From IMG/VR virus record IMGVR_UViG_3300016476_001599, positions 1-64,000 of that record: a DNA stretch of 64,000 nucleotides; one strand, given 5' to 3'. Positions within the stretch are counted from its first letter, which is position 1. Every line of letters begins with the position of its first letter. A program made the position numbers and the translations under genes. A model generated the notes under the pieces. The model was given only the letters and a program-made list of their open reading frames with translations. It did no database searches and was not told the origin of the DNA. This stretch comes from a virus. Of this stretch, positions 15,258-31,938 are shown one piece after another.

Positions 15258-16057
15258 CAGACATTAGGCACACAGAACTAATTCGTTCGCTGCGAGAAAC
15301 CAAGTACCCGTTCGTACCGACCGCGAGTTTGAGCAACGAGAGTGTTTTTTTTGTTGAAGATACTTTCTTAGACGCTCACATTTACTCCGTCGAGGGAGCG
15401 GGGCGTTACTACGTTTCGCAGGTTACCGTTCAGTCAGATAAGTTCGTGCTGTACGTCGGCGACACAGCTTTTCCGTTGCGGTTAAAGGGCGAAGTTAATC
15501 TTCCCATTTCAACAGGTTATATTCGCCTCACGGACGAGCACGGAAGACCGGCGGGTTTGTTGGTCTCGACTCCCGACAGACTGGCTTTGATCTCCGCCTG
15601 GGGAATTCGAACGCACGTCTTCGAGCAGGGTCAAACAGAGTTTTGCGTCACGTGTCAGGTACCAGCGGCTTACCCGGGCGTCACTGGCATGCAAACGCCT
15701 GACGGGCAACTTTCAACAGGCAAAGTCTGGCTTGTGGGTGAGGACGGTGTGGTTCTTCGCACGGATAGCTACATCAACAAACGAGGTGAAGACGTTCCGG
15801 TGGTTCGCGTCGACGTCGTAGGTGATCCTTTGAACTTGCAGCGGTTGTGCAACCCGGCAGACTTGTTTGTTCCAGTTAACCCGATACGTGTTATACGTGT
15901 CGTTAATGGAGATTACACCTACGATTGCTACCCAGACGAACAAGGTAACTTCAACATTCAGATGAACGATGATTTGGCCCCGGATCCTGCGTTAAGAATC
16001 CGCACTACAGCCGCAGGCATAGTCTTTTCCGTGGAAGGCTCGGTGATCAACAAATAA
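15254..16057 (+). CDS. Tail/baseplate protein, paralog 4
   Basis: ETKYPF; IRVVNG...PDEQGNFNI. Confidence 0.55.
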   Translation: MTDIRHTELIRSLRETKYPFVPTASLSNESVFFVEDTFLDAHIYSVEGAGRYYVSQVTVQSDKFVLYVGDTAFPLRLKGEVNLPISTGYIRLTDEHGRPAGLLVSTPDRLALISAWGIRTHVFEQGQTEFCVTCQVPAAYPGVTGMQTPDGQLSTGKVWLVGEDGVVLRTDSYINKRGEDVPVVRVDVVGDPLNLQRLCNPADLFVPVNPIRVIRVVNGDYTYDCYPDEQGNFNIQMNDDLAPDPALRIRTTAAGIVFSVEGSVINK

Positions 16058-16058
16058 A

Positions 16059-17093
16059 ATGCCACGTCCTAACTTTTTCAATGACAACCTGAACCGCGTC
16101 TATCCTTTCAAAGAAGGAAGCTCGGGCGTTAGCACGCCTGATTCCGGGCTTTTTGACTTTTACGCTTTGCCGGACAACGTGATAGTTGATTTTGGCGCCA
16201 TCATGGGCCCCGAGTCCGGCTTTGACGCCGAGATCGACGAGGTCTTTCTGTATCGCATCACACGAGTAAACGCATCGGTATTCGAGTTTGAATTTCGTTG
16301 CACTGCGAGCAATTTAATGCACGCACCGCTTATCTTTACCCGTTCTACCACCGCAGAATTATTTGAAACGGAGTTTGTAGAAAGCTTCACTCTCGACGAG
16401 GCGGCAATAAGCCTTTCAATGTCCGGTCAGCTGCCTGTGTCGACTTCCGACTCCGGTGTCGCGGAAGAATGCGGAGAGCCTCTTTGGTCCGGATTCATGG
16501 TGTCGGGCGACATGCAAAGCCTTGCTGCTCGAATACCAGCAGGCACAAGCCTTACACGGGAAGACGTATACTCGGCAATCGTTGAACCGTGCCTGATACA
16601 GAACTTGTATCTGAATCAAGTTGTGTCTGTCAACATCGCAAATTCAGACAGGACGCGAGCTCTTCGCCCGGAGACTTGCCCGCAGAACCAGTGGGACTTC
16701 GACGTCGGGCAGACTTACGTGTACGAAACGTGCTTGACCGGCAATATCAAGTTTAAAGCCGGTTTCAATATGTCCATAAGCCAAGACGTTGCCAGCTCTA
16801 CACTGGTTTTTGCGCCTACGCTAGGTGCGGGAGACGGGCAGCCTTGCGAGGAAATCGCGATCTTCCCTGGCGAAACTCCACCTGCCGGGTCCGATAACGG
16901 CTTGCTTGCCGGTGACTTTTATTGTAACGAAGCCTTGCGTTCAATTAACGGTTTGCAAGGCCCGACTTTGACATTCTTCGGTGAGTCAGGTGTTTCTATA
17001 ATAACGGACGTTGTAAACAAAAAATTAGTCATAGACATCAATTTGTCCGACCTGGCTGTCTGCGATTTTTCATTCAACTCCGTATCACTATAA
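16059..17093 (+). CDS. Tail/baseplate protein, paralog 5
   Basis: NLNRVYPF; LRSINGLQG. Confidence 0.55.
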   Translation: MPRPNFFNDNLNRVYPFKEGSSGVSTPDSGLFDFYALPDNVIVDFGAIMGPESGFDAEIDEVFLYRITRVNASVFEFEFRCTASNLMHAPLIFTRSTTAELFETEFVESFTLDEAAISLSMSGQLPVSTSDSGVAEECGEPLWSGFMVSGDMQSLAARIPAGTSLTREDVYSAIVEPCLIQNLYLNQVVSVNIANSDRTRALRPETCPQNQWDFDVGQTYVYETCLTGNIKFKAGFNMSISQDVASSTLVFAPTLGAGDGQPCEEIAIFPGETPPAGSDNGLLAGDFYCNEALRSINGLQGPTLTFFGESGVSIITDVVNKKLVIDINLSDLAVCDFSFNSVSL

Positions 17094-17103
17094 GGCATAG
17101 GAC

Positions 17104-19890
17104 ATGGCGCCTACGACGCAGTGCCCCCAGGGACCGCAGTCACCCGTGTTTGATATCGTCAAATGCGACGTGCCTTGCATTTTTCCTATCCCAGGTGGAA
17201 ACTGGCTGATAAACCCACAGGTTCCTCAAGCCCCGGCGGATATCTTTGATTGCCCGTCGCTGCCTGTTCCTCTGCTCGACCCGGATCCAATCTGTCCGAT
17301 TCTTTCCGCCCAAGACGACATCACCACCAACGTGGTACCGATCGGAAGCGAAAGAGTTGTTTTTACTGTTACAAAAGGTCAGTGTTGCGATTATGTATTG
17401 AACTTGCAAGTAGATTTCCCTTGCCCCGAAATCACGGGACAGGCCAACGTAACTACCGTGGGTCCGGGCGGGGCGCCATTTGCCAATTTGAACGTCAACA
17501 AATCTGGCGATTGTTCGTTTGATATCCAGTTAAACATAGGCTTGCCTAGCCCGCAGCTGGGGCCGCAAGGACCACAAGGGCCGCAAGGTGCAGAAGGGCC
17601 GCAAGGTGCAGTCGGGCCGCAAGGAGCAGTCGGACCGCAAGGGGCAGTAGGGCCGCAAGGGCCGCAAGGACCTGCTGGACCACAGGGTTTAATCGGTCCT
17701 CAAGGTTTAATCGGGCCGCAAGGATTGGTCGGACCGCAGGGGGCGGCGGGTCCGCAGGGCGCGGCTGGTCCGCAGGGTACACCTGGACCGCAAGGCCCGA
17801 TTGGTCCCGACGGTAATCCGGGCCCTGACGGCAATCCTGGACCGGACGGCAATCCTGGGCCAGACGGTAATCCTGGGCCAGACGGCAATCCCGGGGACCA
17901 AGGGCCACAAGGAGACCGTGGTCCACAGGGTCATCGTGGGCCGCAAGGGTACCCTGGTTACACGGGAGCCACCGGATATCGCGGACCTCAGGGGTACCGC
18001 GGACCGCAAGGTTATCGCGGCCCACAAGGTTATCGCGGACCTCAAGGGTACCGTGGACCGCAAGGTTATCGTGGACCGCAAGGCTACGAGGGCCCACAGG
18101 GTCCCCAGGGAAAACGCGGACCGCAAGGTTATCGCGGACCGCAGGGCCACCGCGGGCCTCAGGGTTATCGCGGGGCAGAAGGACCGCAGGGTCCTTGTTG
18201 CGAAGGGTCAACAGGTCCTACGGGGCCAACCGGCCCTACGGGTCCAACCGGTCCTACGGGTCCAACCGGCCCAACTACACCTACTTACGAGCTGCTTATC
18301 AGTTGGGAGTTTAACGATCAGCTAACTCCTGAAATTGACCCGCCAGCTCCTTTAAAGTATGCCGGAGACTCCGACGTATTTTACGCTGACCCCGACGCGG
18401 AAGCGGCAAGGCAACAGGCTTTCTCGCTGCACGGCCAGATCTACTTCAACAACGCTTCGCTGGCTGCGGTCACGCACATCTATGTTGAGAAATCGAACTA
18501 CAACAGCGTAGACATATCCGCGTTGCTCGCTACAGCTAAGCCCACCGACACGTTAAAAACTCGCGTGATGTCCGACGTTAACAAGTTCGGCATTTACCGC
18601 GTCTTGGCCGTCACAGAAGAAACAACGCTTTTCGACTACACAGTTGAAGCGATAACAACTAACGGCGCTTACACGTTGCTGGACCAGGTTGTCCTTGAGA
18701 TTCAACCCACCGGTGCCCAAGGTGCAACGGGTGCGACCGGGCCGACAGGTGCAACCGGTCCAATCGGTATCGGCGTGCCGACAGGCGGGTTAACCGGACA
18801 GGTTCTGGCGAAAAACACGGACACCAATTACGACACGGTTTGGATAGACAACTACGCCAAGGAACTACGCGTCACTGTAAAGAACATGTCGGGTGGTGCT
18901 ATTAATAAAGGTCAAGCCGTCATGGCTGTCGGAGCGACAGGGGACACAATTGAAGTCGCTCTAGCAAACGCGGACGGTACCGTTCTGCCGCGTTACATGC
19001 TCGGAATAGCCTCTGAAAACATAGCCAGCGAGGCCTCCGGTTACGTCACCTTGATTGGCGACATGCAGCACCTAAATACCCTCAGTTACACTGTAGGTAC
19101 CGTGTTGTGGCTGGATCCGCTTACGCCTGGCGGATTAACCGCTACCGAGCCGGTAACAAGCACTATACGCATGCCGGTGGCTATTGTTACGCGGCAACAC
19201 GCTGTGAGCGGTCGTCTCTACGTTCGAATGTACGCGCAGCAGACGGCTTTGCATGAACTTTTTGATGTTAAGCTCAACAGCCTTCAAAATGGTAATTACC
19301 TTCGCTATGATAGCACGCTCGCGGCCTGGAAGAATGACGCAACCAGTCCTACAGGCCCGACGGGCGCCACAGGCCCGACGGGCGCCACAGGCCCGACGGG
19401 TGCCACAGGCCCGGGCACGGTAGTAAATGCGACTGCGACAAGCACCAACGCTACGTTCTATCCCGTGTTCGTCGCAGCTGCTGGAAGTAATCAGACACCG
19501 AGTGTCGACACTACGGCACCGGCGCTGAGCTACAACCCGAGCACCGATCTGCTTAACGTTGGCGGTTTAACAGCAAACAAGTACGCAACAGGTACCGGAA
19601 TAGTTTCGGTGGTAACGGGTACAACTCGATCACTGAGCAGTGCAGACAACGGCATTGTCTTGGAATGCAGTAATAGTTTAGCCGTGACAATAACCGTTCC
19701 GACAGGCCTTCCAGTAGGTTTTACGCTCACAGTCATTCAAACCGGGACAGGGCAGATATCGTTTAGCGCGTCTGGGACCACGATAAACAACCGTCAAAGC
19801 CACACCAAGACTGCCGGGCGATGGGCCGTGGTATCCTTGATTCAGCATAGTACTAACAACTTCATTTTGGCCGGGGACACCGCCGCATAA
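17104..19890 (+). CDS. Collagen-like (Gly-X-Y) fibre protein
   Basis: Long GPQ/GPD-GNP/GYR triplet run, GPT blocks, [18 protein letters not shown] fibre motif, C-terminal [11 protein letters not shown]...LAGD domain. Confidence 0.85.
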
Positions 19891-20309
19891 TGATTCCCTT
19901 TTCTGGCTTCTTTAACTCGCATCCGTCGCCGACCGCTGGGCCTGCCGTCACAGACTGGGCCAATTTGACTTACAGCTACGGAACAGCGAGCAGCAACATA
20001 ACCAGTCAGCAACTGGCTTCGGCGATCACGCTTAAGGTTGTCAATCTTACAAACCCGTCGGCCATCCAACTTTTCTACAGCATCTCAGCAACCGAAGTCA
20101 CTGGCAGCCAGTTCGGTTTACCATTCTCTCCCCCGTGGGATCCAGTTGCGGCCAGTCCTGGAAGCACTTTCGCCGTTTCTGCAGGACAATGGGTTAGCTT
20201 CACTTGTTACAGCGATTCGATTGCAACAATAGCACCGCAAACCGTCGAAGTCCGAAACAATGCAGACAACGCGCTTATCGACACTTTCACCATCCAAGTA
20301 ACGGCTTAA
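19890..20309 (+). CDS. Putative fibre-associated protein
   Basis: Stop/start overlap with fibre gene. Confidence 0.5.
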   Translation: MIPFSGFFNSHPSPTAGPAVTDWANLTYSYGTASSNITSQQLASAITLKVVNLTNPSAIQLFYSISATEVTGSQFGLPFSPPWDPVAASPGSTFAVSAGQWVSFTCYSDSIATIAPQTVEVRNNADNALIDTFTIQVTA

Positions 20310-20319
20310 AGCCGGTCAC

Positions 20320-20347
20320 TTGCAACGGCGATTGCGTCTGCTACAGT
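20320..20347 (+). promoter_or_regulatory. Possible sigma70-type promoter
   Basis: TTGCAA-16 nt-TACAGT with extended TG, upstream of RBS aggag. Confidence 0.3.
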
Positions 20348-20370
20348 GAATCTTTTCACAGGAGTTCTAC

Positions 20371-20709
20371 ATGTTAGATCTAGTGTTAGAAGTGGATCTT
20401 CGCGATCCGACAGAAGTCGATGACGTTAAAGCGCATTGCGTGCTTACGGAAATCAGCATTAAACTGGATACGCAAGACGTTTGTTGCATCTTCACCTGCT
20501 GGAAAAGCCTGGAAGCGAGAACGCACAACTGTAAACCTTTTGCGGTTTTACCTGTTGTAGTCGAACAGGATGCGGTTCTCCGTGCAGTATTCGACCGTCA
20601 CTTTGAAGGCCTGTCGGCGATGTGCGGTGAACTAGTGCAGGCTTTAAAAAGCCCAGAAAAGAAAGCAAGGATAGAGCAGAATGCCAGAAAAAATACCGCT
20701 GGTTCTTAA
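20371..20709 (+). CDS. Hypothetical protein
   Basis: Good RBS; 112 aa. Confidence 0.55.
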   Translation: MLDLVLEVDLRDPTEVDDVKAHCVLTEISIKLDTQDVCCIFTCWKSLEARTHNCKPFAVLPVVVEQDAVLRAVFDRHFEGLSAMCGELVQALKSPEKKARIEQNARKNTAGS

Positions 20710-22663
20710 GCACGGCCACCCGCACGCCATGGGCGATACGGTTCTTTTCACTGCCATTGTGCGTGATCTGCACGCTGCCTACCCCGGAAAATACGTGACT
20801 GAGGTTGTTACAAATTTTACAAACGTGTGGTGGAACAATCCGCACGTTGTAAAGCTTTCCGCTTCGCAACGATCTTTAGCCCGAATTGTCACGATGGACT
20901 GGGGAAAAGCAATCAAGCAACATGCGATCGATGAAAAGGGAAACAAGCGACACATACTTTCCTGGTACCACCACAACTTCGAGGAGAAGACCGGTATAAA
21001 GGTTCCCGTCACAAAACCTAAAGCGGATTTGTATCTGTCGGATGACGAAAAGCCACGCCGTTTAGCCGGCAGGTACTGGGTGGTCGTATCGGGCGGTAAA
21101 CTTGACGCCACGGTAAAGCACTGGCACGCTCACCGCATGCAAGAAGTCGTCGACAGGCTTAAAGCTGAAGGGATAAACTGCGTGCAAGTGGGCGCAACAC
21201 AAACCAACCATGTTCACCCACCACTGGAGCGAACGCTCAATCTCATCGGGCAGACGGATAATGTCCGGGACTTGTGGAACATCATATTGCATTCAGACGG
21301 CGTGATATGCGGCATCACAGGGGCGATGCACATAGCCGCCGCGTTTGACAAGCCTTGCGTGGTGTACGCGGGAGGAAGGGAGGATCCTTGGTTTGAGGCC
21401 TACACGAACGAATACAAAGCTTTCGGTCCGGAAGCTGCGGCAGTCAGTGTGCCACATCGTTACCTTCACACCATGGGCAAGCTACCGTGCTGCGAAACGT
21501 ACGGGTGCTGGCGAAACAGGGTAGTTCCGCTAGACCCTACCGACAGGAACCGAAAGGTACATTTGCTTTGTCAAAATCCCGTGAAACCGATTGAAACGCA
21601 TCCTGTAGCCGGCTGCCAGGACTTGATATCAGCTGCCGACGTGGTTTCGGCTGTGCTGTCTTACTATTCCGCCGGTACGATTCCGGCGATCGACAAGTCT
21701 TCTGTTGTAAGCCGGAGCATTCAAGTACCGGTTGTTGAGTTGGTGGAGTACAAGGAATCCACTGTGCAGCTTATACGTGAGCCGTCGCGGCCCGAGGTAA
21801 CGCAGAAACCGCACCAGATGTCGCACCCCTTGGAACTCAAAGCGAATCAGACGGGGCGAATCACAAAGACAATTCAAGGCATAGATGATCCGGTAATCGG
21901 CGGAAAGGTCACGATCTTTGTCCTGTGCTACGGTCCGTACACGTCCCTTGCAACGCGTTGCATTGACGGCATACTTCGAACGGTGCCTGCCGACAAGCTG
22001 GACCTTCGCGTCGCCACTAATCAAGTACCTAAGTCCACTTTGAATTATTTGAAAACGACACCTGCTACGAAAATCTACGAGCACAATGCTAACGATTTCA
22101 AATATCCGGTAATGCGGCAAATGTTTTACGATGAATCGCACCCGATTAAGACCGAGTACATGGTCTGGTTTGACGACGATACGTGGATTGTTAACCCTGC
22201 CTGGCTCAGCGACCTGTGCACGACCATCGTCGCAAACCATAAAAACGGCTTTAGACTTTATGGTAACATGATGTTTCACGATCTTGGCATTTACGCAAAC
22301 GCCGGCTACCGACCCGACAGCTGGTTCAAAGCGGCGACCTGGCATAAAGGCAAGCCGCTTAGATCGAAAACCGGCGGCGAGGACGCTTCGAACGGCTCTG
22401 TAATCGATTTCGCGGTTGGATGGTGCTGGGCACTGCACACGCAGACTATGCAGCAGGCAGACATTCCCGACTGTCGTTTGCTTCACAATGGAGGCGACAT
22501 TGCAATCGGAGAGCAGCTGCACCAGGCCGGATATGGTATAAAGCAGTGGAACAAAAACAAAAGTCTTATTGCTTGCCCGTCAAGAGAGCAAGGAGGAAGA
22601 CGAGGGGCAAGTCAGCGTTTTCCGTGGGACCCTAAATTCGAGATGTCACAAATTAGGCGATAA
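20681..22663 (+). CDS. Two-domain glycosyltransferase: GT9 (heptosyltransferase-like) plus GT-A-like domain
   Basis: HAMGDTV, KHW, TGAMHIAAAFDKPCVV (GT9-like); C-terminal KVTIFVLCY and WFDDDTW DxD motif. Confidence 0.8.
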   Translation: MPEKIPLVLKHGHPHAMGDTVLFTAIVRDLHAAYPGKYVTEVVTNFTNVWWNNPHVVKLSASQRSLARIVTMDWGKAIKQHAIDEKGNKRHILSWYHHNFEEKTGIKVPVTKPKADLYLSDDEKPRRLAGRYWVVVSGGKLDATVKHWHAHRMQEVVDRLKAEGINCVQVGATQTNHVHPPLERTLNLIGQTDNVRDLWNIILHSDGVICGITGAMHIAAAFDKPCVVYAGGREDPWFEAYTNEYKAFGPEAAAVSVPHRYLHTMGKLPCCETYGCWRNRVVPLDPTDRNRKVHLLCQNPVKPIETHPVAGCQDLISAADVVSAVLSYYSAGTIPAIDKSSVVSRSIQVPVVELVEYKESTVQLIREPSRPEVTQKPHQMSHPLELKANQTGRITKTIQGIDDPVIGGKVTIFVLCYGPYTSLATRCIDGILRTVPADKLDLRVATNQVPKSTLNYLKTTPATKIYEHNANDFKYPVMRQMFYDESHPIKTEYMVWFDDDTWIVNPAWLSDLCTTIVANHKNGFRLYGNMMFHDLGIYANAGYRPDSWFKAATWHKGKPLRSKTGGEDASNGSVIDFAVGWCWALHTQTMQQADIPDCRLLHNGGDIAIGEQLHQAGYGIKQWNKNKSLIACPSREQGGRRGASQRFPWDPKFEMSQIRR

Positions 22664-22665
22664 AC

Positions 22666-23280
22666 ATGAAAAAAGTTTTTACGTATTACGAGCCAGTTAG
22701 CCAGCTTGAACATCAACTGGAACAGATTGACATCTGCAGGCAATCCTGGGAAAGAAACGGTTGGCAGTTGGAAGTGATTGGAGAATCTGTTGCAAGAAGA
22801 TCCGCTTTTTACACTCAATATGTTGAAGCCATAGCCGGGCTTCCAACCGTAAATCCTGGCAAATACGACTACCATTGTTACATGCGTTGGTTGGCCATGT
22901 CCGAGACCGGTGGCGGCATCATGATAGATTACGATGTCGTGAATATCTCTCTGATGCAGCCAGATGTCTTCGAAGCTTCAGCGATCGCAGTGCACTGCGG
23001 TCACGTACCTTGCACTGTGTCCGGCTCTGCCGCCAATTACCTGCGAGTTTGTCGGGAATTTTGCGACATGGCGAAACGACCTTCGCATTTTATTGAAATT
23101 TTCGGCAAACCCCACACTTCTGACATGGTTATGCTGGCCACCGGGCTTATCCAGTTCGACGAAAAATACACCGTAACGGAATACCCAGTGCCCGGGCAAC
23201 TTGTACACTGCAAGACAGACGCCTGCAATCTTGCAAAAAAACCAAAATTAGAGATAATGAAATCGTTGCTTGGCCCGTAA
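22666..23280 (+). CDS. Putative GT-A glycosyltransferase
   Basis: SWERNGW; CYMRWLAM..GGGIMIDYDV DxD motif. Confidence 0.6.
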   Translation: MKKVFTYYEPVSQLEHQLEQIDICRQSWERNGWQLEVIGESVARRSAFYTQYVEAIAGLPTVNPGKYDYHCYMRWLAMSETGGGIMIDYDVVNISLMQPDVFEASAIAVHCGHVPCTVSGSAANYLRVCREFCDMAKRPSHFIEIFGKPHTSDMVMLATGLIQFDEKYTVTEYPVPGQLVHCKTDACNLAKKPKLEIMKSLLGP

Positions 23281-23295
23281 TTTGAGGCAAAATAG

Positions 23296-23733
23296 ATGGC
23301 TAGAAGGATCCAGCTTACAAAGTCAGAAACCGGAACTGTCGTATTTCCAAACTACGGTGCTTACCGCTTACGTGTCGACGTGACGGATTTCGAGGGAAAC
23401 GACATAGACGGTAACGTGTTCATTTACCGTCGAAACCCACCTAGCCCACACACGGATCTTAGTACGGATATATTTGAAGCGGTTGCAGGACCGCCACAAC
23501 TTGCAGACATACCTGCGGGTGCTCCGGATCCGGATCAAAGCTGGCCTTACTATCGCTTGAGCTACGTAGAGCTCGACGTTGCCTCGACGGCTCAAGCGAC
23601 GGCTATTTGGGATGAAATACAGCACGAAGTCGGAGTGCTTGTCGCGGCAATGAACCGGCTGGACACACTGCAGCCAACGCAAGTCGTTTGGATACCCGAC
23701 GCACCTGAAACCTCCACATCGAGTTCCATCTAA
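23296..23733 (+). CDS. Hypothetical protein
   Basis: 145-aa ORF with RBS gagg. Confidence 0.6.
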   Translation: MARRIQLTKSETGTVVFPNYGAYRLRVDVTDFEGNDIDGNVFIYRRNPPSPHTDLSTDIFEAVAGPPQLADIPAGAPDPDQSWPYYRLSYVELDVASTAQATAIWDEIQHEVGVLVAAMNRLDTLQPTQVVWIPDAPETSTSSSI

Positions 23734-23734
23734 C

Positions 23735-24031
23735 ATGGCAACACACAAACTGCTGGTACTCGAGGACACAGTTCTCCTTACACTCGCGACCAACCCGAAT
23801 TTCGTGCGGGAATTTCCGTTCCTTGCGAGCGGAGCTGTTCCCACGGCAAAGAAAAGCTGCAAGCCCTGCAACCGGGCGGCGTCCAAACGCGTGCAGGCAA
23901 TGCAAACCATAAAGCAGTCTATTGTCAACATGGGCGTCGAGAAGAAGAAACGGCTGAAAGAGATGCTTAGCGCGGAGAAGCTGCGGCTTCGTGTTGCTCA
24001 AAACGGTAAGGTCGTAGAGTACACTTTTTAG
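23735..24031 (+). CDS. Basic protein with CxxC
   Basis: KSCKPC; Lys/Arg-rich. Confidence 0.6.
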   Translation: MATHKLLVLEDTVLLTLATNPNFVREFPFLASGAVPTAKKSCKPCNRAASKRVQAMQTIKQSIVNMGVEKKKRLKEMLSAEKLRLRVAQNGKVVEYTF

Positions 24032-24059
24032 ACCTTAATTTAGGGTAAAAACGTGTCAG

Positions 24060-24870
24060 AATAATATGCAGACGACTTATCGTTTGCAGGTCGGTCGAAG
24101 TACAAAGGCAAACGTACTTTCACTGGCTAAAGTCGAGTATCGCAAAAACCGCACTCGCTTGATTTAAAATCAAGACGAGGGTAACAGCGTCTTTTGTCTT
24201 TGCGATATTTGCGGGCGGCTAGCACTTGTGTCGTCCATACCGAGATCTTCTCTATACGGGTCTCGTGAAGCATTACTGTGTGGCGTGTAAAGGTACACGT
24301 GGCACGGTTTCAGGGTTGAACTAAAAGTCTGAAAAGACATCCCCTAGTTAGTGAAAAACTGTTCCGACAATTAGTCCTAAATTTCTCTGGGCTTCTTTGT
24401 TGGCGTCTTATCGTATCTTTTTACGCAAGGCGAAGCCAAAAAGCAGTGAACGTTCCGAGAACATACCTTCTCGTTAAAACATAGGTAACGTGGTTACTAG
24501 CTCCACTAAAAGAAGGCTAGCAGATGTTTTGATCAAAAACGATTAAAGCACCCAGTGCGAGGCTGGCGTTTTGTCCAACGTAAAACGATACGCAAAGCTA
24601 CCGCGAAGGGGCCATTAATAATCCGGGGAAGTTCTGGATCGCTTAGCAAGCGGCAACAGCTCGTACCCTTAGGCTAACAACCTAAGCTAGCCTTGGCATA
24701 CAGGTAAAAATGCAGAGCTCACTCTCTTAGGGGTCCTAGTTACAGGACTCGATTACCGCAAGCATAAAGACTGGTGAGAGTCTTTATTGAGTAAGCGGTA
24801 TATGGCACCACGAATCAGCCTCTACGTGGCGGTGCTAGATAACCAACCGATGATTCATTCCGCGTGTTTT
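24060..24870 (+). ncRNA. Candidate large structured non-coding RNA (~800 nt); strand inferred from flanking genes
   Basis: No ORF >=60 aa in any frame across 24032-24948; many consecutive stem-loops with G-U pairs and at least one longer-range helix. Confidence 0.65.
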
Positions 24871-24874
24871 ACCT

Positions 24875-24907
24875 CGCAAGCCCTACCGCATTCAGTGAAT
24901 GCTGCGG
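24875..24907 (+). repeat. 33-bp hairpin repeat, copy 1
   Basis: cgcaagccctaccgcattcagtgaatgctgcgg; one mismatch to 25587-25619. Confidence 0.85.
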
Positions 24908-24948
24908 CGAGGTTTATTGGTATCGCATTCACATTTGAACAGTGAAAA

Positions 24949-25272
24949 ATGGAAATGGAAAAGGTTCACGGACACTATTTAGAAGACTTCGGCAATTTTC
25001 GCGCTCTCTTCTGTCTGCGAGAGGGTGCCGGATCCGAAGAGGTGTGCAACGCATTTCTGCGTCGCGCAGCTTTGGACTTAACCGTCGAGTCGATGGTCAA
25101 TAAGTCGTTTGTCGCCGTTGCGACAAACTTCTCCAATGTCATGGTCTTGTATGTCCATGACCGCACCTACATTTTCGCAGCGGTCGAGTTCGACCAATAC
25201 GAAAAGAAACTCCAATCGCGACATCCTAAGTGGAATGTCGCAGGATTTCTTGCAAGTTTACCTTGGTTTTGA
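24949..25272 (+). CDS. Hypothetical protein
   Basis: 107-aa ORF. Confidence 0.5.
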   Translation: MEMEKVHGHYLEDFGNFRALFCLREGAGSEEVCNAFLRRAALDLTVESMVNKSFVAVATNFSNVMVLYVHDRTYIFAAVEFDQYEKKLQSRHPKWNVAGFLASLPWF

Positions 25273-25292
25273 CAAAGAAAAGAATAACTGTT

Positions 25293-25574
25293 ATGAAAAG
25301 TTTGAGATCCATTATTTGTGTCGCGGTTCTTGTTATTAATGCGATGGTTATTCTAGAAGGACGTGAGACCTTGCCAAAAGATGTACCGTCATTTTCGAAC
25401 GTAGCCTACCGTGAGGACATAAGCCTCCGGCAGAGAACCGTGTTTGGGCTGGCAATGGTGGCAGCCAAATGGGAGGTGGAAGACTATTACGTTTTCAAAA
25501 TCGCACGCCTCCGCGAAAAAAGAGACATTTGGCCAGTTTCGACAATTTTCAGCGAAGGAAAATGGCACAAGTAA
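25293..25574 (+). CDS. Small exported or membrane protein
   Basis: MKSLRSIICVAVLVINAMVIL N-terminus. Confidence 0.5.
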   Translation: MKSLRSIICVAVLVINAMVILEGRETLPKDVPSFSNVAYREDISLRQRTVFGLAMVAAKWEVEDYYVFKIARLREKRDIWPVSTIFSEGKWHK

Positions 25575-25586
25575 TTGTGCCTAGCA

Positions 25587-25630
25587 CGCAAGCCCTACCG
25601 CATTCAGTGGATGCTGCGGTGGGGCTTTTT
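25587..25630 (+). terminator. 33-bp hairpin repeat copy 2; intrinsic terminator-like
   Basis: aagccctaccgca...tgcggtggggctt stem followed by T-run. Confidence 0.7.
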
Positions 25631-25656
25631 ACTTTTGCATCCACAAGGATAAAACT

Positions 25657-26025
25657 ATGCGCACAATTGCTTTGATCGTTTTCACTTTTTCGATGTTGTT
25701 TTCCCTTTCGGTCATGCAAGGAGATGAAGGCAAGCTTCCCGCCAAAAAGCGGGAGCAGATGGAAGCACAAGTTACACGGGAGTTTCAAAATTCTTTCTGG
25801 ATGGGTTTTGTCATTCAACGCGGAGAACTGGGCCCGATTTTCAGGCGTTCAATGGACAAGGTTCTCGCGAAAAAAATTCACGAGTTAACGGATGACGAGC
25901 TTGTCATTCTTAACAAGAGGATGGCGGATCTGACCGAAGAAGAGACAGAGGTTGTGCGAGCTTTTACGGCTCGGACAACGTGGAATGTGATGTTTACCAT
26001 CGTTTTTATGGACGCGAACAGATAA
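25657..26025 (+). CDS. Signal-peptide protein
   Basis: RBS aagga; hydrophobic N-terminus. Confidence 0.55.
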   Translation: MRTIALIVFTFSMLFSLSVMQGDEGKLPAKKREQMEAQVTREFQNSFWMGFVIQRGELGPIFRRSMDKVLAKKIHELTDDELVILNKRMADLTEEETEVVRAFTARTTWNVMFTIVFMDANR

Positions 26026-26039
26026 AGTCAAGGTGACAC

Positions 26040-26774
26040 ATGAAACCTAAAGAACTAAAGACGATTTTGGACGATCACGACAAGTGGTTACGTGGCGAGC
26101 AAGGCAAGCGGGCCAGCTTAAGCGGGGCCGACCTTGCCGGGGCCAGCCTTCACCGGGCCAACCTTCGCGGGGCAGACCTGAGCGGGGCTGACGTGAGCGG
26201 AGCCAACCTGAACGAAACCAACCTTCTCGGGGCCAACCTTCGCGGGGCCAACCTAAGTAGGGCCAGCCTAAGCGAGGCCAACCTGAGAGAGGCCGACCTA
26301 AACGGGGCCAACCTACGCTTGGCCGACCTAAGCAAGGCCAACCTTCTCTGGGCCGACCTTCGCTGGACCAACCTAAGCAAGGCCAACCTAAGCGGTGCCA
26401 ACCTACGCGGGGCCTACCTAAGCGGGGCCAACCTGTGCGAGGCCGATCTAAGCGGGGCCGACCTAGGCGGGGCCAACCTGAGCGGGGCCAACCTTCGCGA
26501 GGCCAACCTTCGCGGGGCCAACCTTCGCGGGGCCAGAGTTGACGCTGCAGTATGCCGGATGGATTTTGGAGGTTGGTCGGTCTGCGTTTACGCTGACAAA
26601 ACCTCTATCGGCTGCCGGCAGCACATTAACGAGGAATGGTTAGCGTGGACCCCGGAAAGTAAGGAAATCAAAGAGATGCACTCCGATGCATCTGCTTGGT
26701 GGGCGACGCACGGGGAGGCAATTAAAGGCGTAATCCGATGCGTAATGGCTAAAGCGAAAGGCGGTGAAGCGTGA
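26040..26774 (+). CDS. Pentapeptide-repeat protein (paralog A)
   Basis: A(N/D)LxG repeats; N-cap ILDDHDKWL; C-terminal IGC domain. Confidence 0.9.
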   Translation: MKPKELKTILDDHDKWLRGEQGKRASLSGADLAGASLHRANLRGADLSGADVSGANLNETNLLGANLRGANLSRASLSEANLREADLNGANLRLADLSKANLLWADLRWTNLSKANLSGANLRGAYLSGANLCEADLSGADLGGANLSGANLREANLRGANLRGARVDAAVCRMDFGGWSVCVYADKTSIGCRQHINEEWLAWTPESKEIKEMHSDASAWWATHGEAIKGVIRCVMAKAKGGEA

Positions 26775-27283
26775 GGACGGCAGACTTAATGTCCGGGCTG
26801 ACGCCTGGAACGTGCCTTTGGCGGGATTTCTCCGTCAACAAAAACCACGAAGTTAAATTATCTAGCGTCCCGTTCACGCGAACCGACAAAGGTAATTTTA
26901 CCGCCCGTTTGCTGTTCTACGGTACCTGGCTTTTTGAGCCTACGGTGTGGAACCGGTCGGTTAAACCGCACGGATTCGTGGTCTTTGTGGACGAGCTTCC
27001 ACCCGACGACTGGACGCACCTAACGGTGCAAAGGGTCGCCGGTAACCGGAAATCGCTCACAGCAAAGTACGGAGGAGCGCTACCAAGCCTGGAAGAGTAC
27101 TTAGTATTCTGCCAACAGTCCTTCAAGTTGAAGCAGGAAACCTTGAATGACACGCTGCAAAAGAAAATTCAAGCCGGTCTTTCGCTGAAGGTTTCACTTC
27201 CGAAGGAACAGCACCGCATGGTTGTCGATCATCACTTCGATGGATCGGATTTAGTCCCGACTTTTCAATATGTCGAAAGGTAA
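26771..27283 (+). CDS. Hypothetical protein
   Basis: GTGA overlap with upstream gene. Confidence 0.55.
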   Translation: MRTADLMSGLTPGTCLWRDFSVNKNHEVKLSSVPFTRTDKGNFTARLLFYGTWLFEPTVWNRSVKPHGFVVFVDELPPDDWTHLTVQRVAGNRKSLTAKYGGALPSLEEYLVFCQQSFKLKQETLNDTLQKKIQAGLSLKVSLPKEQHRMVVDHHFDGSDLVPTFQYVER

Positions 27284-27286
27284 GAA

Positions 27287-27511
27287 ATGTCAGAAATTGA
27301 CGCGATCGCACTCGACGCAGTAATGAACAGCCTGAAACGCGCAGGTCTTTCTTGGCCGCACGGCGACCGAGAAACGCTTAAAGGTTTGATCCGAATTTAC
27401 TTCGGGGATATTTCAACTCGGCTAATTGCCGAGCTGGAAAAAATCGACAAGCAATGTCAGGCGGCACAACGTGCTGTTGACAACCTCCAGGTTGCTTGGA
27501 AAAAAAGATAA
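27287..27511 (+). CDS. Hypothetical protein
   Basis: 74-aa ORF. Confidence 0.5.
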   Translation: MSEIDAIALDAVMNSLKRAGLSWPHGDRETLKGLIRIYFGDISTRLIAELEKIDKQCQAAQRAVDNLQVAWKKR

Positions 27512-27542
27512 GAATCGAAAGAGAGTCTTTTGATTCAGTGCG

Positions 27543-27616
27543 GTGACCGTAGCTCAACAGGTTAGAGCAGGAGACTCATAATCTCTCGGTTCCCGGTTCA
27601 AGTCCGGGCGGTCACA
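27543..27616 (+). tRNA. tRNA with CAT anticodon (probably tRNA-Ile2, otherwise elongator Met); CCA not encoded
   Basis: GTGACCG/CGGTCAC acceptor, GCTC/GAGC D-arm, GGAGA-CTCATAA-TCTCT anticodon arm, CCCGG-TTCAAGT-CCGGG T-arm. Confidence 0.92.
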
Positions 27617-27679
27617 CTGTTGACATCTGCCATGTGGCAGCTGTTACCTTGTTTGTTAGACCTTTTCACAGGAGTTGAT

Positions 27680-27931
27680 ATGGTAGGTTTAATGAAGAAG
27701 AAGAACCGCAAGGAGTGGTTCGATAAAATTGCGAGAGAGGTGCACAAGCTGGACAGCCATGCTGTAAGCTATTACCCGTTTCGAAAAGGCGGGGCCTCGA
27801 AAGAGGAAATCACATGGGAGCTCAAGCAGCGAGGCTTGCAGTCGGTGCAGTTCTACCCCACCTTTTTCGAGGTGTTTACTCCGGTTAAACCCGCGGAAAA
27901 CGAGCAACCATCGGCAAAAGCTTGTCTCTAA
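27680..27931 (+). CDS. Hypothetical protein
   Basis: RBS aggag before ATG 27680. Confidence 0.55.
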   Translation: MVGLMKKKNRKEWFDKIAREVHKLDSHAVSYYPFRKGGASKEEITWELKQRGLQSVQFYPTFFEVFTPVKPAENEQPSAKACL

Positions 27932-27953
27932 CGCAAGACTTCAGGGAGGAAGT

Positions 27954-28115
27954 ATGCTCAGACTGGTTTTAATTCTTACGTTTCTGGCAGGCGGTTGCGC
28001 CGCCCCCAGGCAACAAACCTTAAGGGTGGACGTCTACGCACGTAATGTAGATGTCCTTGACGCTAAACTTTCAGGGAACGGCGATGTTGCGGTTTCCTAT
28101 TCATCCGTTTGGTAA
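27954..28115 (+). CDS. Small lipoprotein (53 aa, below ORF-track cutoff)
   Basis: RBS ggagga; MLRLVLILTFLAGGC lipobox. Confidence 0.6.
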   Translation: MLRLVLILTFLAGGCAAPRQQTLRVDVYARNVDVLDAKLSGNGDVAVSYSSVW

Positions 28116-28128
28116 GAAAGACAGAATC

Positions 28129-28362
28129 ATGGTTTCCGCAATTAAGAAATCCCGTAACGCTTTCGTGGCGGCTAGAAGTGTGATTGTCGTGAAGCGTAAA
28201 AGCCTCAAGGCTTTCCAGGCCGAACCGCAAGATCCGTGGAAGGTCGGTTTAGAAAGTACGACCGACCAACTGTCGCCAGAAGAGCTGGTTTCCTGGTTTC
28301 GCCAGGGTTACTCGCCCGCTGATATCAACAAGACGAAACCTTCACGTCTTACCTTCGAGTAA
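28129..28362 (+). CDS. Hypothetical protein
   Basis: ATG at 28129 in the track ORF. Confidence 0.45.
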   Translation: MVSAIKKSRNAFVAARSVIVVKRKSLKAFQAEPQDPWKVGLESTTDQLSPEELVSWFRQGYSPADINKTKPSRLTFE

Positions 28363-28395
28363 CAAAAGAACCTGAGAAAGGCTTTTAATTTGTCG

Positions 28396-28764
28396 ATGTC
28401 AAATACAAAGTTATCGATTACACGCCGAGTCTGCAATCAGCCGAATCCGCCAGATGATAGCTGCTTCCTACTAGGCGAGACGGAGTTTCAAGTGCGAGCT
28501 TCGTCGCAAAATACCGCGCAAGTCTGCGTCGTACCACCGGGCGGAAAGCCGAGCTACCTGCGTTTTCTTGCTAAAGACAAGCCGTTGAAGCACGGGAAGT
28601 GCTTGATCGAACTTGTCGAAGGCGGGTCAAACATCAGGCTCCGGTTCACCGCGCCGCAGTCAGTGGCGATCGACCGAAAGGAAGTTCGGCGAGCGAAGTT
28701 GGAGTCGGCTAACCGCCAACGGGCCACTGCGAAAACCGTAGACACGGTCGTCGCAAGCAAGTAA
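28396..28764 (+). CDS. CsrA/RsmA-like RNA-binding protein, about twice normal length
   Basis: N-terminal LSITRR and C-terminal NIRLRFTAPQSVAIDRKEV match CsrA beta1 and beta4-beta5-helix motifs. Confidence 0.65.
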   Translation: MSNTKLSITRRVCNQPNPPDDSCFLLGETEFQVRASSQNTAQVCVVPPGGKPSYLRFLAKDKPLKHGKCLIELVEGGSNIRLRFTAPQSVAIDRKEVRRAKLESANRQRATAKTVDTVVASK

Positions 28765-28813
28765 AATCCCGAAAAGTCTTGAGGTTTCATTTCTCTGTTT
28801 ATTAGAGGTCGAC

Positions 28814-29140
28814 ATGATCGAAGTAGTGCAGTGCCAGTTGTCTAGCGATAACACGAGGGCCATCGTGGCAGTCCGAAGTGATAAAAAATCGTTTCCGGAA
28901 CAAATCGAGGAACTAAGCACGGCGGAAGCCAGAAACACAGCTTTGAAAGCCGCGAGTTCCGCCGGCATCAAAGGGTCGCCTGGAATTTCCGGGACGTCGC
29001 AAGCGGTGCACCCTCGCAATAAGCAGGGAAAGGCCTTAGATGACCTTCGCGACAGTGACGGGAAACCGTTGGACTTCGCTCATCCGGACATGCAGCCAGC
29101 ATACTACCAGGCTGCTTTTGAGGTTACGGCAAAGGTATAA
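28814..29140 (+). CDS. Hypothetical protein
   Basis: RBS gaggt; 108 aa. Confidence 0.6.
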   Translation: MIEVVQCQLSSDNTRAIVAVRSDKKSFPEQIEELSTAEARNTALKAASSAGIKGSPGISGTSQAVHPRNKQGKALDDLRDSDGKPLDFAHPDMQPAYYQAAFEVTAKV

Positions 29141-29424
29141 GCTCAAGTTTTAATCCGGCGTTGCCAGCAAATCGCTAGCCGCTTCGGCGGCTAGCTAACG
29201 CACGGCGGCAACGGCCTAACGTTGCACTGACAAACAAGCCGACCGGGTGCGAACAAGTTCCGACAGACGGTCAGGTAAAAAAGCACCCTGACGCCCGCTA
29301 GGCCATCATGAACAAGCGAATCGGATAGCAAAGCATAAGGAGAAAAGCCATGAAGCGATAATGACTATAAGATGAGCCGAATTCGGAGGCAAAACCGATA
29401 AGGCGGCAACAGCCTGAGTTGCAA

Positions 29425-29494
29425 GGATCGGCGGCGTAAGGTGCTTTATACAAGGTGATGCTGCGTCTTGGCGGGTGAAAACCTTGCACGATCC
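29425..29494 (+). ncRNA. tRNA-like element 1 (degenerate)
   Basis: GGATCGG-CGGCGT...GCGGG-TGAAAAC-CTTGC-ACGATCC followed by T-run. Confidence 0.55.
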
Positions 29495-29533
29495 TTTTTT
29501 TGTTTGTTTAGTTTCTGTTTTGAAAGGGTTGAT

Positions 29534-30220
29534 ATGTACAAGTTCTGTTTTTCGGTATTGGTTGCTCTAACTTCATGTGTGACCGCAGCGGCACAAACTC
29601 CGTTTCCTGTGCGATACGTTGACGTGGGGCAAACGGCGCGTGTGCCTGCCGGTGAGTACGTCTTGAGTCGCGAGACGGTGGTTCGAGGGGGAACCCTGAT
29701 CTTGGAAGCTGGCGTAAAAATCAAAGTACAATCGGTCGGTCGCCCCTTGCAAATGGCAGGCGGGGTCTTGGAGATTCAAGGCACAGAAAGCAATCCTGTA
29801 GTGATTGAACCCGACGCAGGCCACACCTGCGGTCAAATTCTGTGCTACTTTGGAAATGGCTCGCGCCCAAAGCTAAGCGTAAGCCATCTCGACTACAGCA
29901 CCACCAAGGCGTCGGCTGGCACATGCTTCGTGCTTAGTGCCACCGATTTTAGTTTCTTCGACAGTGCGATCTACAGTGCATCGGCAGGATCGCCGAGGCG
30001 AGGTTGCATTCAAGCCGGAAACGATTCGCAAGGCATCGTTTCAAATTGCATTTTGGAATGCCTCAAGGAGCCGAACGTAGTAACTTCTGGCTTGATTATC
30101 GGCAACGGCACAAGCCAAACCGATAAAGTGGTGGCAAATAACATAATCGCTATCAATTGCTCAAATCCCATTAACATCAACAATAGAAACGCAGTGGGAT
30201 TCAGCGTAACGATTGAGTAG
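29534..30220 (+). CDS. Secreted protein, probable right-handed beta-helix
   Basis: Signal peptide ending AAA-Q; GTLILEAGVKI and GVLEIQGTESNPVVI motifs; lies inside the tRNA-like array. Confidence 0.7.
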   Translation: MYKFCFSVLVALTSCVTAAAQTPFPVRYVDVGQTARVPAGEYVLSRETVVRGGTLILEAGVKIKVQSVGRPLQMAGGVLEIQGTESNPVVIEPDAGHTCGQILCYFGNGSRPKLSVSHLDYSTTKASAGTCFVLSATDFSFFDSAIYSASAGSPRRGCIQAGNDSQGIVSNCILECLKEPNVVTSGLIIGNGTSQTDKVVANNIIAINCSNPININNRNAVGFSVTIE

Positions 30221-30769: not shown

Positions 30770-30850
30770 TTTTCGGAGCGGTACGAAAGAAAGATAGTGA
30801 AAGGTGAGAAATGACGCCAGATAAGCAACCGCTTGTGAGGCTGGTAAACT

Positions 30851-30962
30851 GGATCGGCGGCGTGGATAGTGAACACGCGGAGCGATAGGCGGTGTCTGAG
30901 TGCGATTTGAAGCCTGCCGTGCTAACGCTTGCCCAATAGCAGGTGCGAATCCTGCCCGATCC
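30851..30962 (+). ncRNA. tRNA-like element 5
   Basis: GGATCGG, GCGTG-GATAGTGAA-CACGC, variable interior, GCAGG-TGCGAAT-CCTGC-CCGATCC. Confidence 0.7.
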
Positions 30963-31113
30963 TTTCACGCAACATTAGAAGCGGGGACTAGCCGCGAGTT
31001 GCGGAAAGCTAGTCGAGGTGCGAGTCGTCCCTCTACAACCAAACGATAATTGCCTAACCCACAGGGACCAAAACCTGAAGGCGCAAGAAAGGGTACAGCC
31101 GGAGAGACGGCGA

Positions 31114-31196
31114 GGATCGGCGGCGCGGGACCACTGAAAAGTAATCCGCGATGGTGCTCGAAGAGAGGTCTAACATGTTCGAATCATGGCCGGTCC
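31114..31196 (+). ncRNA. tRNA-like element 6
   Basis: GGATCGG...CATG-TTCGAAT-CATG-G-CCGGTCC; canonical T-loop on a different stem sequence. Confidence 0.6.
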
Positions 31197-31260
31197 GCTT
31201 AGTTATTAAGGCGTGCTTAATAACTGGATGTTTATTGGTTTGTTTTGAAGGACTTTGGTT

Positions 31261-31410
31261 ATGCGTTTTGTTTGTTTTTTGGTGTTAGCCTTAGCAAGTC
31301 CTTTGGCTTCGGCGCAGACACCGCTACCGGTTCGATTTGTTGCGGGCGGTCAACCCGCGACGGTTCCCGCTGGCAACTACCTGCAGACGCAAGAAGTCAG
31401 CGTCCGCTAG
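31261..31410 (+). pseudogene. Truncated paralog of the 29534-30220 secreted protein
   Basis: Translates MRFVCFLVLALASPLASAQTPLPVRFVAGGQPATVPAGNYLQTQEVSVR*, versus AQTPFPVRYVDVGQTARVPAGEYVLSRETVVR. Confidence 0.8.
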
Positions 31411-31536
31411 TCGTGAATAGGCGGTAATAATTGTCGCAGGAGCGACTTGTTTATCTAAAACATAAACAAGTTTCTCCTGCAGCTTCTTTTCTTTTCCAAC
31501 GTCGCAATTCCCACGACTTTTTTTTAGCTATTGGCC

Positions 31537-31938
31537 ATGGATTATAACAAAATCAAACGTTTAGACCGCGCAACGGGCTCGTGCCACGACCACGTGGTTT
31601 GGTTTATGCTGTGGCTCGAACACTTGAATATGTTCTCCGAGTCGCAAGTTTACGATATAATTAAATTCGTAGGTACGGGCACTTTGGTCGCAATCGAAGC
31701 ACCTTGGCTTCCGTCGCACGCGACTTGCGTTTTCAACGTCGTCGTTTGCGACAGTCGCTGGGTCACTTTCTCCGGCAACGTTTCCTTCTGGGATACGGAG
31801 ACCGCCGAAGAAATTAAAACTCTGCCGCAGCCTGCAATCACGCATGTTACTTGTGACTTTACCGCCTTACTGCAGCGAAGAAAAAATGGATCAAAGAGCA
31901 ACATCGACGTTACTTCAGACGCTCATCAAGCAAGCTAA
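31537..31938 (+). CDS. Hypothetical protein
   Basis: ORF track; ATG at 31537. Confidence 0.5.
   Translation: MDYNKIKRLDRATGSCHDHVVWFMLWLEHLNMFSESQVYDIIKFVGTGTLVAIEAPWLPSHATCVFNVVVCDSRWVTFSGNVSFWDTETAEEIKTLPQPAITHVTCDFTALLQRRKNGSKSNIDVTSDAHQAS

Follow-up and report, generated by a model that had tools for sequence, protein, structure and literature searches.

A large structured RNA locus of a giant freshwater phage, with a candidate self-cleaving ribozyme at its 3' end

What does a phage keep in the longest stretch of its genome that holds no protein gene? The question is raised by IMG/VR record IMGVR_UViG_3300016476_001599, a freshwater virus sequence of 118,846 nucleotides (nt) with a CheckV completeness of 55%, whose first 64 kb form the stretch analyzed here (the window). 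Between the stop codon of open reading frame (ORF) 23735-24031 and the ATG of ORF 24949-25272 lies a gap of 917 nt (24032-24948) which, by a crude ORF cover of the whole record, is the longest of 39 gaps of at least 40 nt, the runner-up being 30808-31530. An earlier note made from the sequence of the window had singled it out as the largest coding gap, which this ranking bears out for the entire record, and had read it as one densely base-paired RNA of ~800 nt, either a divergent or permuted relative of the large phage RNAs GOLLD and ROOL or a new class. We consider it likely that the gap encodes, as a single-copy gene, a large and highly structured non-coding RNA that belongs to an uncatalogued family, is transcribed from the + strand and folds as such. 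The RNA body, ~24067 to 24803 or about 740 nt, consists of a near-invariant 5' domain of ~280 nt followed by a faster-evolving, modular 3' domain; the large RNA proposed earlier thus stands, whereas its uniformity does not. The closest relatives are contigs of 175-205 kb, including a complete genome of 204,794 bp with direct terminal repeats, which indicates that the source is a giant tailed phage.

The gap is non-coding. Each of its six frames contains TAA, TAG and TGA and would stay closed if any one stop codon were reassigned; the longest open stretch is 60 codons. A small protein of 33 amino acids (aa) at 24066-24167, the sole ATG-initiated ORF of the conserved part, was rejected because its homologue in the sister phage locus L004 carries an in-frame TAA, read by eye from the alignment. 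The RNA locus occurs once in the record.

The gap is also conserved far above the neutral level. Relatives' loci were gathered via neighbor proteins (searches returning 12 loci, 6 loci and 1 genome contig), and among them blastn and nhmmer found homologues of the RNA in two sister phage types only: L003/L005, 95% identical over 903 nt of the gap, and L004 (also L016, L018 and L021), about 80% identical over 765 nt. Four neighbor genes, compared between the window and L004, share 70-77% nucleotide identity overall and 38-54% at third codon positions, whereas identity within the gap is 88-94% over the first 300 columns and thereafter runs at 75, 81, 61, 65, 55 and 51% per 100 columns. That the gap is better kept than the genes adjoining it argues for direct selection on its nucleotides.

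Beyond these sister phages the RNA was not recovered. The relatives of ORF 23735-24031 found by protein search (P0003-P0005) are 78-81% identical to it; in distant relatives, which share ~55% protein identity in a 660-aa neighbor, the flanking genes are kept and small ORFs plus short repeated elements stand in the place of the RNA, elements that these gaps share among themselves and not with the RNA of the window. A covariance model, R1, built from 24066-24236 matches only the window RNA and its two sister loci: it finds nothing significant in the records of 5 distant relatives (best E 0.18, a 33-nt piece), no match in a Gemmataceae genome or in the record of the distant relative L024, and none in 151 genomes of Gemmataceae, where an empty answer from such a scan is not informative. 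Neither blastn with the gap nor megablast with 20000-30000 matched any of 50,697 phage records; two exact 20-nt patterns in IMG/VR returned the same three contigs and nothing further, and one 24-nt pattern in JGI metagenomes returned one contig with scores identical to those of L004. The contig of another distant relative, L025 (5001-5291; 49% identity, 98-aa protein), is binned with a metagenome-assembled genome of Gemmataceae (planctomycete), at most a hint at the host and possibly a binning artefact.

The folding energy of the gap is strand-specific. On the + strand the whole gap reaches -299.3 kcal/mol (z -6.18, 0/20 shuffles as good), compared with -268.5 kcal/mol on the - strand (z -3.05, 1/20 shuffles as good). 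When 300-nt windows were folded on both strands with 60 shuffles each, 24032-24331 gave z -5.84 (-103.7 kcal/mol) on the + strand and z -2.12 (-72.6 kcal/mol) on the - strand, a difference of 31 kcal/mol, and 24332-24631 gave z -2.97 and z -0.58, respectively; 21 coding windows taken for comparison (15032-21331) range from z +1.3 to -3.2 on the + strand. The asymmetry arises because many invariant G-U pairs of the 5' domain become A-C mismatches on the - strand, and these pairs argue for an RNA read from the + strand. The earlier note had made the same argument from G-U pairs for the gap at large, which holds for its first two thirds and fails for the last; with that exception, the comparison with shuffled sequences that it had asked for comes out in favor of structure.

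Substitutions among the relatives preserve the predicted fold. RNAalifold run on the three sequences predicts local hairpins strung one after another and only a few long-range pairs; the model of the RNA body (24060-24803) contains 222 pairs in 29 helices, with standard pairs in 96.8% of cells. In it, 21 pairs are changed on both sides, compared with 9.4 +/- 2.2 in column shuffles (0/500) and with 0-4 in controls whose partners were slid by 1-3 columns. Such compensatory changes occur in the 5' domain (e.g., 24100/24117 and 24242/24264, window positions derived by hand from alignment columns), in helices 24497-502/24515-20, 24525-34/24541-50, 24552-56/24562-66 and 24641-48/24711-18, and in the terminal hairpin (helices 28 and 29), where 4 of 17 pairs are changed on both sides in L004. 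Whole elements also come and go: L004 is without 24 nt corresponding to one entire hairpin (about 24567-24590) and without 10 nt at about 24678-24687. In a blind test, the window was folded alone (294 pairs) and the substitutions of L004 were permuted within 100-column blocks; L004 shows 15 doubly compensated pairs vs 5.3 +/- 2.2 expected (0/2000) and 52 broken pairs vs 62 +/- 5 (50/2000). Contigs of four other samples add 16 variant positions, 8 of them unpaired, 7 keeping or creating a standard pair and 1 breaking a pair, the last being a loop-closing G-U; three of the seven repair mismatches of the window, and 24157/24176 changes on both sides from G-C to A-U. Collectively, the compensatory changes exceed the controls and give support for the fold that is good but, with three sequences, not conclusive. 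All stems that had been picked out by eye in the earlier note exist in the sequence and reappear in the predicted folds (Table 1). By eye, 24081-24087, in the 3' arm of hairpin 1, is fully complementary to 24108-24114 in the invariant loop of hairpin 2; both segments are invariant, and they would form a 5' pseudoknot if transcription begins inside hairpin 1.

The locus belongs to no catalogued class. At gathering score, Rfam 15 reports only a tRNA-Met (27543-27616) in the 64-kb window. Four permissive Rfam scans of the gap or its parts (E up to 10) yielded no GOLLD (RF01998), ROOL (RF03087), OLE, RNase P, tmRNA or intron, their rows (microRNA, snoRNA, plant-virus leader, DUF805) all being at chance level, and a scan of both sister loci (E up to 1) gave no GOLLD or ROOL. 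The list of known classes proposed in the earlier note for checking thus produced no match; its suggestion of a divergent or permuted GOLLD or ROOL receives no support from these models, and its alternative of a new class does.

A separate line of evidence comes from the 3' end, which the earlier note had passed over: a self-cleaving ribozyme probably sits at the end of the RNA body, and the extreme 3' part of the gap is a terminator-like repeat common to the next gene cassette. In L004, the RNA is followed on its own strand by a type-P1 twister ribozyme (twister-P1, RF03160; 14084-14143; 55.8 bits, E 1.4e-11, or 5.3e-13 in the whole L004 record), a match which covers the full model (positions 1-68) with its conserved core letters and starts right after the last helix common to all three variants. 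The twister is confined to L004; no twister-P1 match was found in the whole 118.8-kb record of the window with E up to 10, nor in L003. In the distant relative L007 (= G001), an intergenic region matches part of the twister-P1 model (positions 14-53) weakly at 9535-9571 (+), with 17.1 bits (E 0.06).

In the window, the equivalent place holds a candidate hepatitis delta virus (HDV)-like ribozyme. P1 pairs 24804-09 with 24831-36 (6 bp), its first pair being a G-U wobble, with which an HDV-like P1 begins; P2 pairs 24812-17 with 24851-56 (6 bp), P3 pairs 24818-20 with 24828-30 (3 bp) around a 7-nt L3, and P1.1 pairs 24837-38 with 24822-23 (2 bp). This nested double pseudoknot layout, starting at the cleavage-site G1, fits a descriptor of our own. 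With just 12 nt (24839-24850) between P1.1 and the 3' strand of P2, the candidate has no P4, a domain that minimal theta-type HDV-like ribozymes are also described as lacking (PMC10879173). The catalytic cytosine of minimal HDV-like ribozymes is the first position of J4/2 (PMC10879173); in the window a candidate for it is the C at 24847/24848, which precedes the 3' strand of P2 by 3-4 nt whichever of the two P2 registers is taken. P3 and L3 resemble the Rfam HDV-F-prausnitzii consensus in a 15-nt partial match (10.4 bits, E 6). Across the whole record the descriptor matches twice on the + strand (24804 and 31564) and once on the - strand; the chance of a match starting at this very base is ~1e-4 (an estimate from 1 match per 118.8 kb and a 10-nt target), and among 8 related loci L003 alone matches, at the orthologous position 14125. 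The second + strand match, 31564-31618, stands against one chance match expected per strand and may carry no meaning.

Twister ribozymes cut at their U-A step. The predicted cuts, 24803/24804 in the window and 14088/14089 in L004, each fall 3 nt past the common terminal helix. The two ribozyme segments align with a score of 27, compared with 28.0 +/- 4.3 for shuffles, and being no more alike than shuffles they indicate that one ribozyme replaced the other. A decayed twister in the window was considered and rejected, as the segments resemble each other no more than shuffles and the window gives no twister match. The 3' end of the RNA is probably cut at 24803/24804 by a built-in, P4-less HDV-like ribozyme, a candidate read from sequence, and the presence of two unrelated ribozymes at an equivalent base seems to reflect selection for an exact 3' end, whichever ribozyme makes it.

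Records of expression are sparse. Part of the stretch occurs in 20 of the 23 sequencing runs considered; they come from 17 studies, mostly freshwater or aquatic, and include one RNA library. Contigs were placed on the window for 4/23 runs, and they cover 24786-24948 and the flanking genes unevenly, which makes them uninformative there. The RNA library yields a single 212-nt contig on 24076-24286, in the 5' domain, 95% identical, with nothing on the flanks; its start at 24076 is not readable as a transcript start.

Several results weigh against the picture drawn so far. The RNA-library contig is a weak hint of expression, as the library is small and may hold DNA. The last third of the gap folds no better than shuffles (24632-24931: z -1.03 on the + strand, z -1.73 on the - strand, not significant); its last 145 nt lie outside the RNA body and comprise the ribozyme candidate, the terminator-like hairpin and the stretch where ribosomes would bind for the gene that follows. 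The body model is counted on the same alignment to which it was fitted, and its further pair types do not exceed shuffles (35/500). With only three distinct sequences (window, L003 type and L004 type), the power of covariation is low. The long-range helices (e.g., 24350-54 with 24719-23) never vary and so receive no covariation support, 52 pairs of the window-only minimum free energy fold break in L004, and in the blind test L003, with 1 double change vs 0.55 expected (886/2000), is too close to inform. As to the 3' end, the L004 twister, at 55.8 bits, stays below the Rfam gathering score of 67.2 and is not a member at the curated threshold. Our HDV-like descriptor is loose, with 1.0 chance match per shuffled 118.8-kb strand (20 dinucleotide shuffles), so that a match somewhere in the record means nothing; and 24804-24856 matches an Rfam HDV-type model at chance level only (10.4 bits vs a gathering score of 44), covariance models being unable to score pseudoknots and the HDV-F-prausnitzii model having a P4. 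At the 5' end, a consensus scan of the + strand found no sigma-70-like promoter, and the repeated element of distant relatives described below finds its best match in the record at 24032-24067 (+) with only 6.0 bits (E 2.1).

Table 1. Features of the RNA locus and its surroundings in the window
Feature	Position	Strand	Basis and remarks
Conserved intergenic element	24030-24067	+	Directly after the stop of ORF 23735-24031; promoter-like
RNA 5' domain	24067-24345	+	Seven or eight consecutive hairpins; stems and loops near-invariant
Variable middle and 3' domain	24346-24753	+	Hairpin chain, whole hairpins gained or lost; 51-81% identity to L004
Terminal long hairpin	24754-24800	+	Last helix common to all three variants
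Candidate P4-less HDV-like ribozyme	24804-24856	+	Threading by eye and own descriptor
Terminator-like hairpin and T-run	24871-24918	+	Read from sequence; kept in L003 and L004
59-nt direct repeat, copy 1	24875-24933	+	Terminator plus lead-in to the next start codon
Inserted accessory cassette, two ORFs (107 and 114 aa)	24949-25574	+	Outside the RNA; bracketed by the 59-nt repeat
59-nt direct repeat, copy 2	25587-25645	+	83% identical to copy 1; closes the cassette
Stem of the earlier note	24067-75/24080-88	+	Sequence, predicted folds
Stem of the earlier note	24098-24104/24115-21	+	Sequence, predicted folds
Stem of the earlier note	24137-46/24199-208 enclosing 24158-63/24169-75	+	Sequence, predicted folds
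Stems of the earlier note: cgagatc; gcgtgta/actgtg; tgttttgatc; atccgggg; cttagg; gggtcct		+	Sequence, predicted folds
Stem of the earlier note: ataaagact within taccgc		+	Sequence, predicted folds

The surroundings of the RNA body are set out in Table 1. Upstream lie tail-fibre-like genes, and all genes nearby are on the + strand; the upstream 98-aa protein, modeled with a predicted local distance difference test score of 72, has no match at E 0.001 or better in a PDB fold search with that model. The intergenic element in front of the RNA aligns with a ~45-nt element of the distant relatives, all of which carry it after their homologue of ORF 23735-24031 and repeat it in front of downstream small-gene cassettes. 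Copies were seen in L007 at 8369-8412, 9449-9492 and 10081-10124 and also in L008, L022, L024 and L025; a profile of the three L007 copies detects L025, L024, L008 and L022 at E 5e-15 to 1e-3. The element of the distant relatives resembles a standard module, either a promoter or a junction, and the stretch in the window is a possible promoter or processing signal; no 8-mer enriched across intergenic regions emerged as a promoter motif. Behind the ribozyme candidate, a simple terminator scan did not call the terminator-like hairpin. The 59-nt repeat has two copies only in the record, and the cassette ORFs have no match in L003 or L004 (tblastn, E 1e-4) and no Pfam or PHROG family. In L003, other DNA occupies the cassette slot, and in L004 a homologue of ORF 25657-26025 comes directly after the RNA locus; with its content differing among the sister phages, the slot is one of accessory-cassette exchange, on which the RNA borders.

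A few further observations concern the gap and its vicinity. CTAG is over-represented in 24032-24948 (7 seen vs 1.5 expected from genome frequencies), its copies being mostly unconserved in L004. A CsrB-like sponge was rejected, as the RNA holds 3 GGA only; a 124-aa protein at 28390-28764 matches Pfam CsrA below the cut-off (18.4 vs 27 bits, residues 79-102). A search for repeats, iterons or a toxin-antitoxin-type tandem RNA found none, the five short two-copy families present being chance-like.

If the locus is an RNA gene, we picture it working as follows. Transcription of the + strand would start from the upstream conserved element or read through from the virion genes, and the transcript would fold as a chain of hairpins. 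The HDV-like ribozyme would cleave at the base with which it starts, freeing the RNA from downstream sequence and leaving a three-base tail past the last helix and a 2',3'-cyclic phosphate end, with the terminator-like hairpin following the ribozyme; in L004, the twister at the same position would cut at the equivalent base. Once free, the RNA may act in trans by way of its invariant 5' domain, serving as a platform to which a protein or nucleic acid binds, as a decoy for such a molecule or, like GOLLD and ROOL, as a self-assembling particle; trans action in any of these forms is of low certainty. That the loops of the 5' domain hardly vary suggests that they recognize something specific, either a partner or further copies of the RNA, and the modular 3' domain has the look of a scaffold that tolerates change. 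A bolder version, which we regard as doubtful, would make this a new class of giant phage RNA whose need for an exact cyclic-phosphate 3' end is so strong that two unrelated ribozymes came to stand at one base in sister phages, the released 740-nt RNA being made with the virion genes late in infection and serving as a decoy for a host defense or translation factor or as a self-assembling particle.

Other explanations of the gap were weighed. The structured region might be a cis-acting part of an mRNA, either the 3' untranslated region of the virion transcript or the leader of the accessory genes, stabilizing the message while the ribozyme separates messages. The shared strand with all neighbors, the lack of a terminator between ORF 23735-24031 and the RNA and the failure to find a sigma-70-like promoter fit such a role; stabilizing hairpins, however, need no sequence conservation, whereas here loops as well as stems of the 5' part are 88-94% identical with synonymous sites saturated, and distant relatives keep the upstream gene without the RNA. 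Moreover, the downstream gene differs in all three phages and the terminator-like hairpin intervenes, which argues against a leader of one particular gene, and a cis role as a whole appears rather improbable. Were the hairpins to act in DNA, as a replication origin, packaging site or recombination hotspot, the dense inverted repeats and the adjoining accessory-cassette slot would find a ready explanation. We nevertheless judge this very unlikely: the structure is specific to the + strand, by 31 kcal/mol in the 5' 300 nt via G-U pairs, the sister phage carries its twister on that same strand, there are no iterons or tandem repeats, the cumulative GC skew shows no turn at the gap, and in the complete sister genome (204,794 bp) the locus lies at 166,058, ~39 kb from the nearest terminal repeat. 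Even less credible is a decayed protein gene or junk DNA with chance hairpins; small ORFs do occupy this position in distant relatives, but the gap is kept far better than synonymous sites are, substitutions keep pairing, stops interrupt every frame of all variants, the folding z reaches -5.8, and the very recent transfer that such an origin would need is contradicted by the divergence of the flanks.

Finally, the RNA might be a GOLLD or ROOL so divergent that the Rfam models miss it. It shares with them a length of several hundred nt, a phage origin, dense structure and a division into one conserved and one variable half, the latter also described for GOLLD (PMC12286853); both are likewise associated with aquatic metagenomes and with genome regions holding tRNA and tRNA-like genes, as here with the freshwater source and the tRNA-Met, the only tRNA of the window, 2.6 kb downstream of the gap. 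Like the window RNA, neither has a known protein partner or function according to PMC12286853. Neither model, however, matches the window or the sister loci, and the halves are reversed: in GOLLD the 3' region is universally conserved and the 5' region less so (PMC12286853), whereas in the window RNA the 5' half is the conserved one (88-94%) and the 3' part is 51-81% identical to L004. Its fold, moreover, is predicted to be mostly local, serial hairpins, whereas multi-stem junctions, pseudoknots and oligomers are known for GOLLD and ROOL, which were shown to be self-assembling, RNA-only homo-oligomeric cages (PMC12286853). A 3' end set by a ribozyme, as predicted here, is not described for them in the available text of that paper. 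Membership in either family is accordingly highly improbable, and we retain an uncatalogued RNA family as the likely explanation.

The predicted 3' end of this RNA invites comparison with the minimal HDV-like ribozymes of phages (PMC10879173, Kienbeck et al. 2024), a likeness judged by our own descriptor and not by that of the paper. Like the theta ribozymes described there, the candidate is a P4-less nested double pseudoknot cut at G1, comes immediately after a structured RNA, the 3' end of which it would generate, and lies in a tailed-phage genome in sense with its neighbors. Theta ribozymes are tRNA-associated, defined by cleavage no more than 5 nt from the 3' end of a tRNA (PMC10879173); in the window, the only tRNA lies at 27543-27617, and the predicted cut follows the last helix of a ~740-nt RNA instead. 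The sources differ as well, the paper treating gut phages of Bacteroidota or Bacillota and the window coming from a freshwater giant phage. The same paper counts 526 minimal HDV-like matches in phages that do not adjoin tRNAs, 493 of them in non-coding regions and these mostly >200 nt from an ORF, and leaves their role open (PMC10879173). Our literature search, judged by listings and the opening lines of abstracts, found no account of the window RNA or of any large phage RNA that ends in a ribozyme; the hit lists of PMC10879173 may include the ribozyme. The window RNA is short enough for in vitro transcription and for cleavage, oligomer and structure work.

To our knowledge, the number of large structured phage RNAs described is small and no function has been assigned to any of them, so each further class offers a new handle on what such RNAs do. 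The present one was seen in freshwater and aquatic metagenomes of 17 studies and is not a one-off. Its tail resembles the arrangement in which theta ribozymes trim phage tRNAs (PMC10879173), with a giant RNA in the place of the tRNA. If this is true, the minimal HDV-like phage ribozymes that are not linked to tRNAs would gain a concrete job, the trimming of a large RNA, and the two unrelated ribozyme types at the same base would amount to a natural experiment in which the end matters and not the enzyme.

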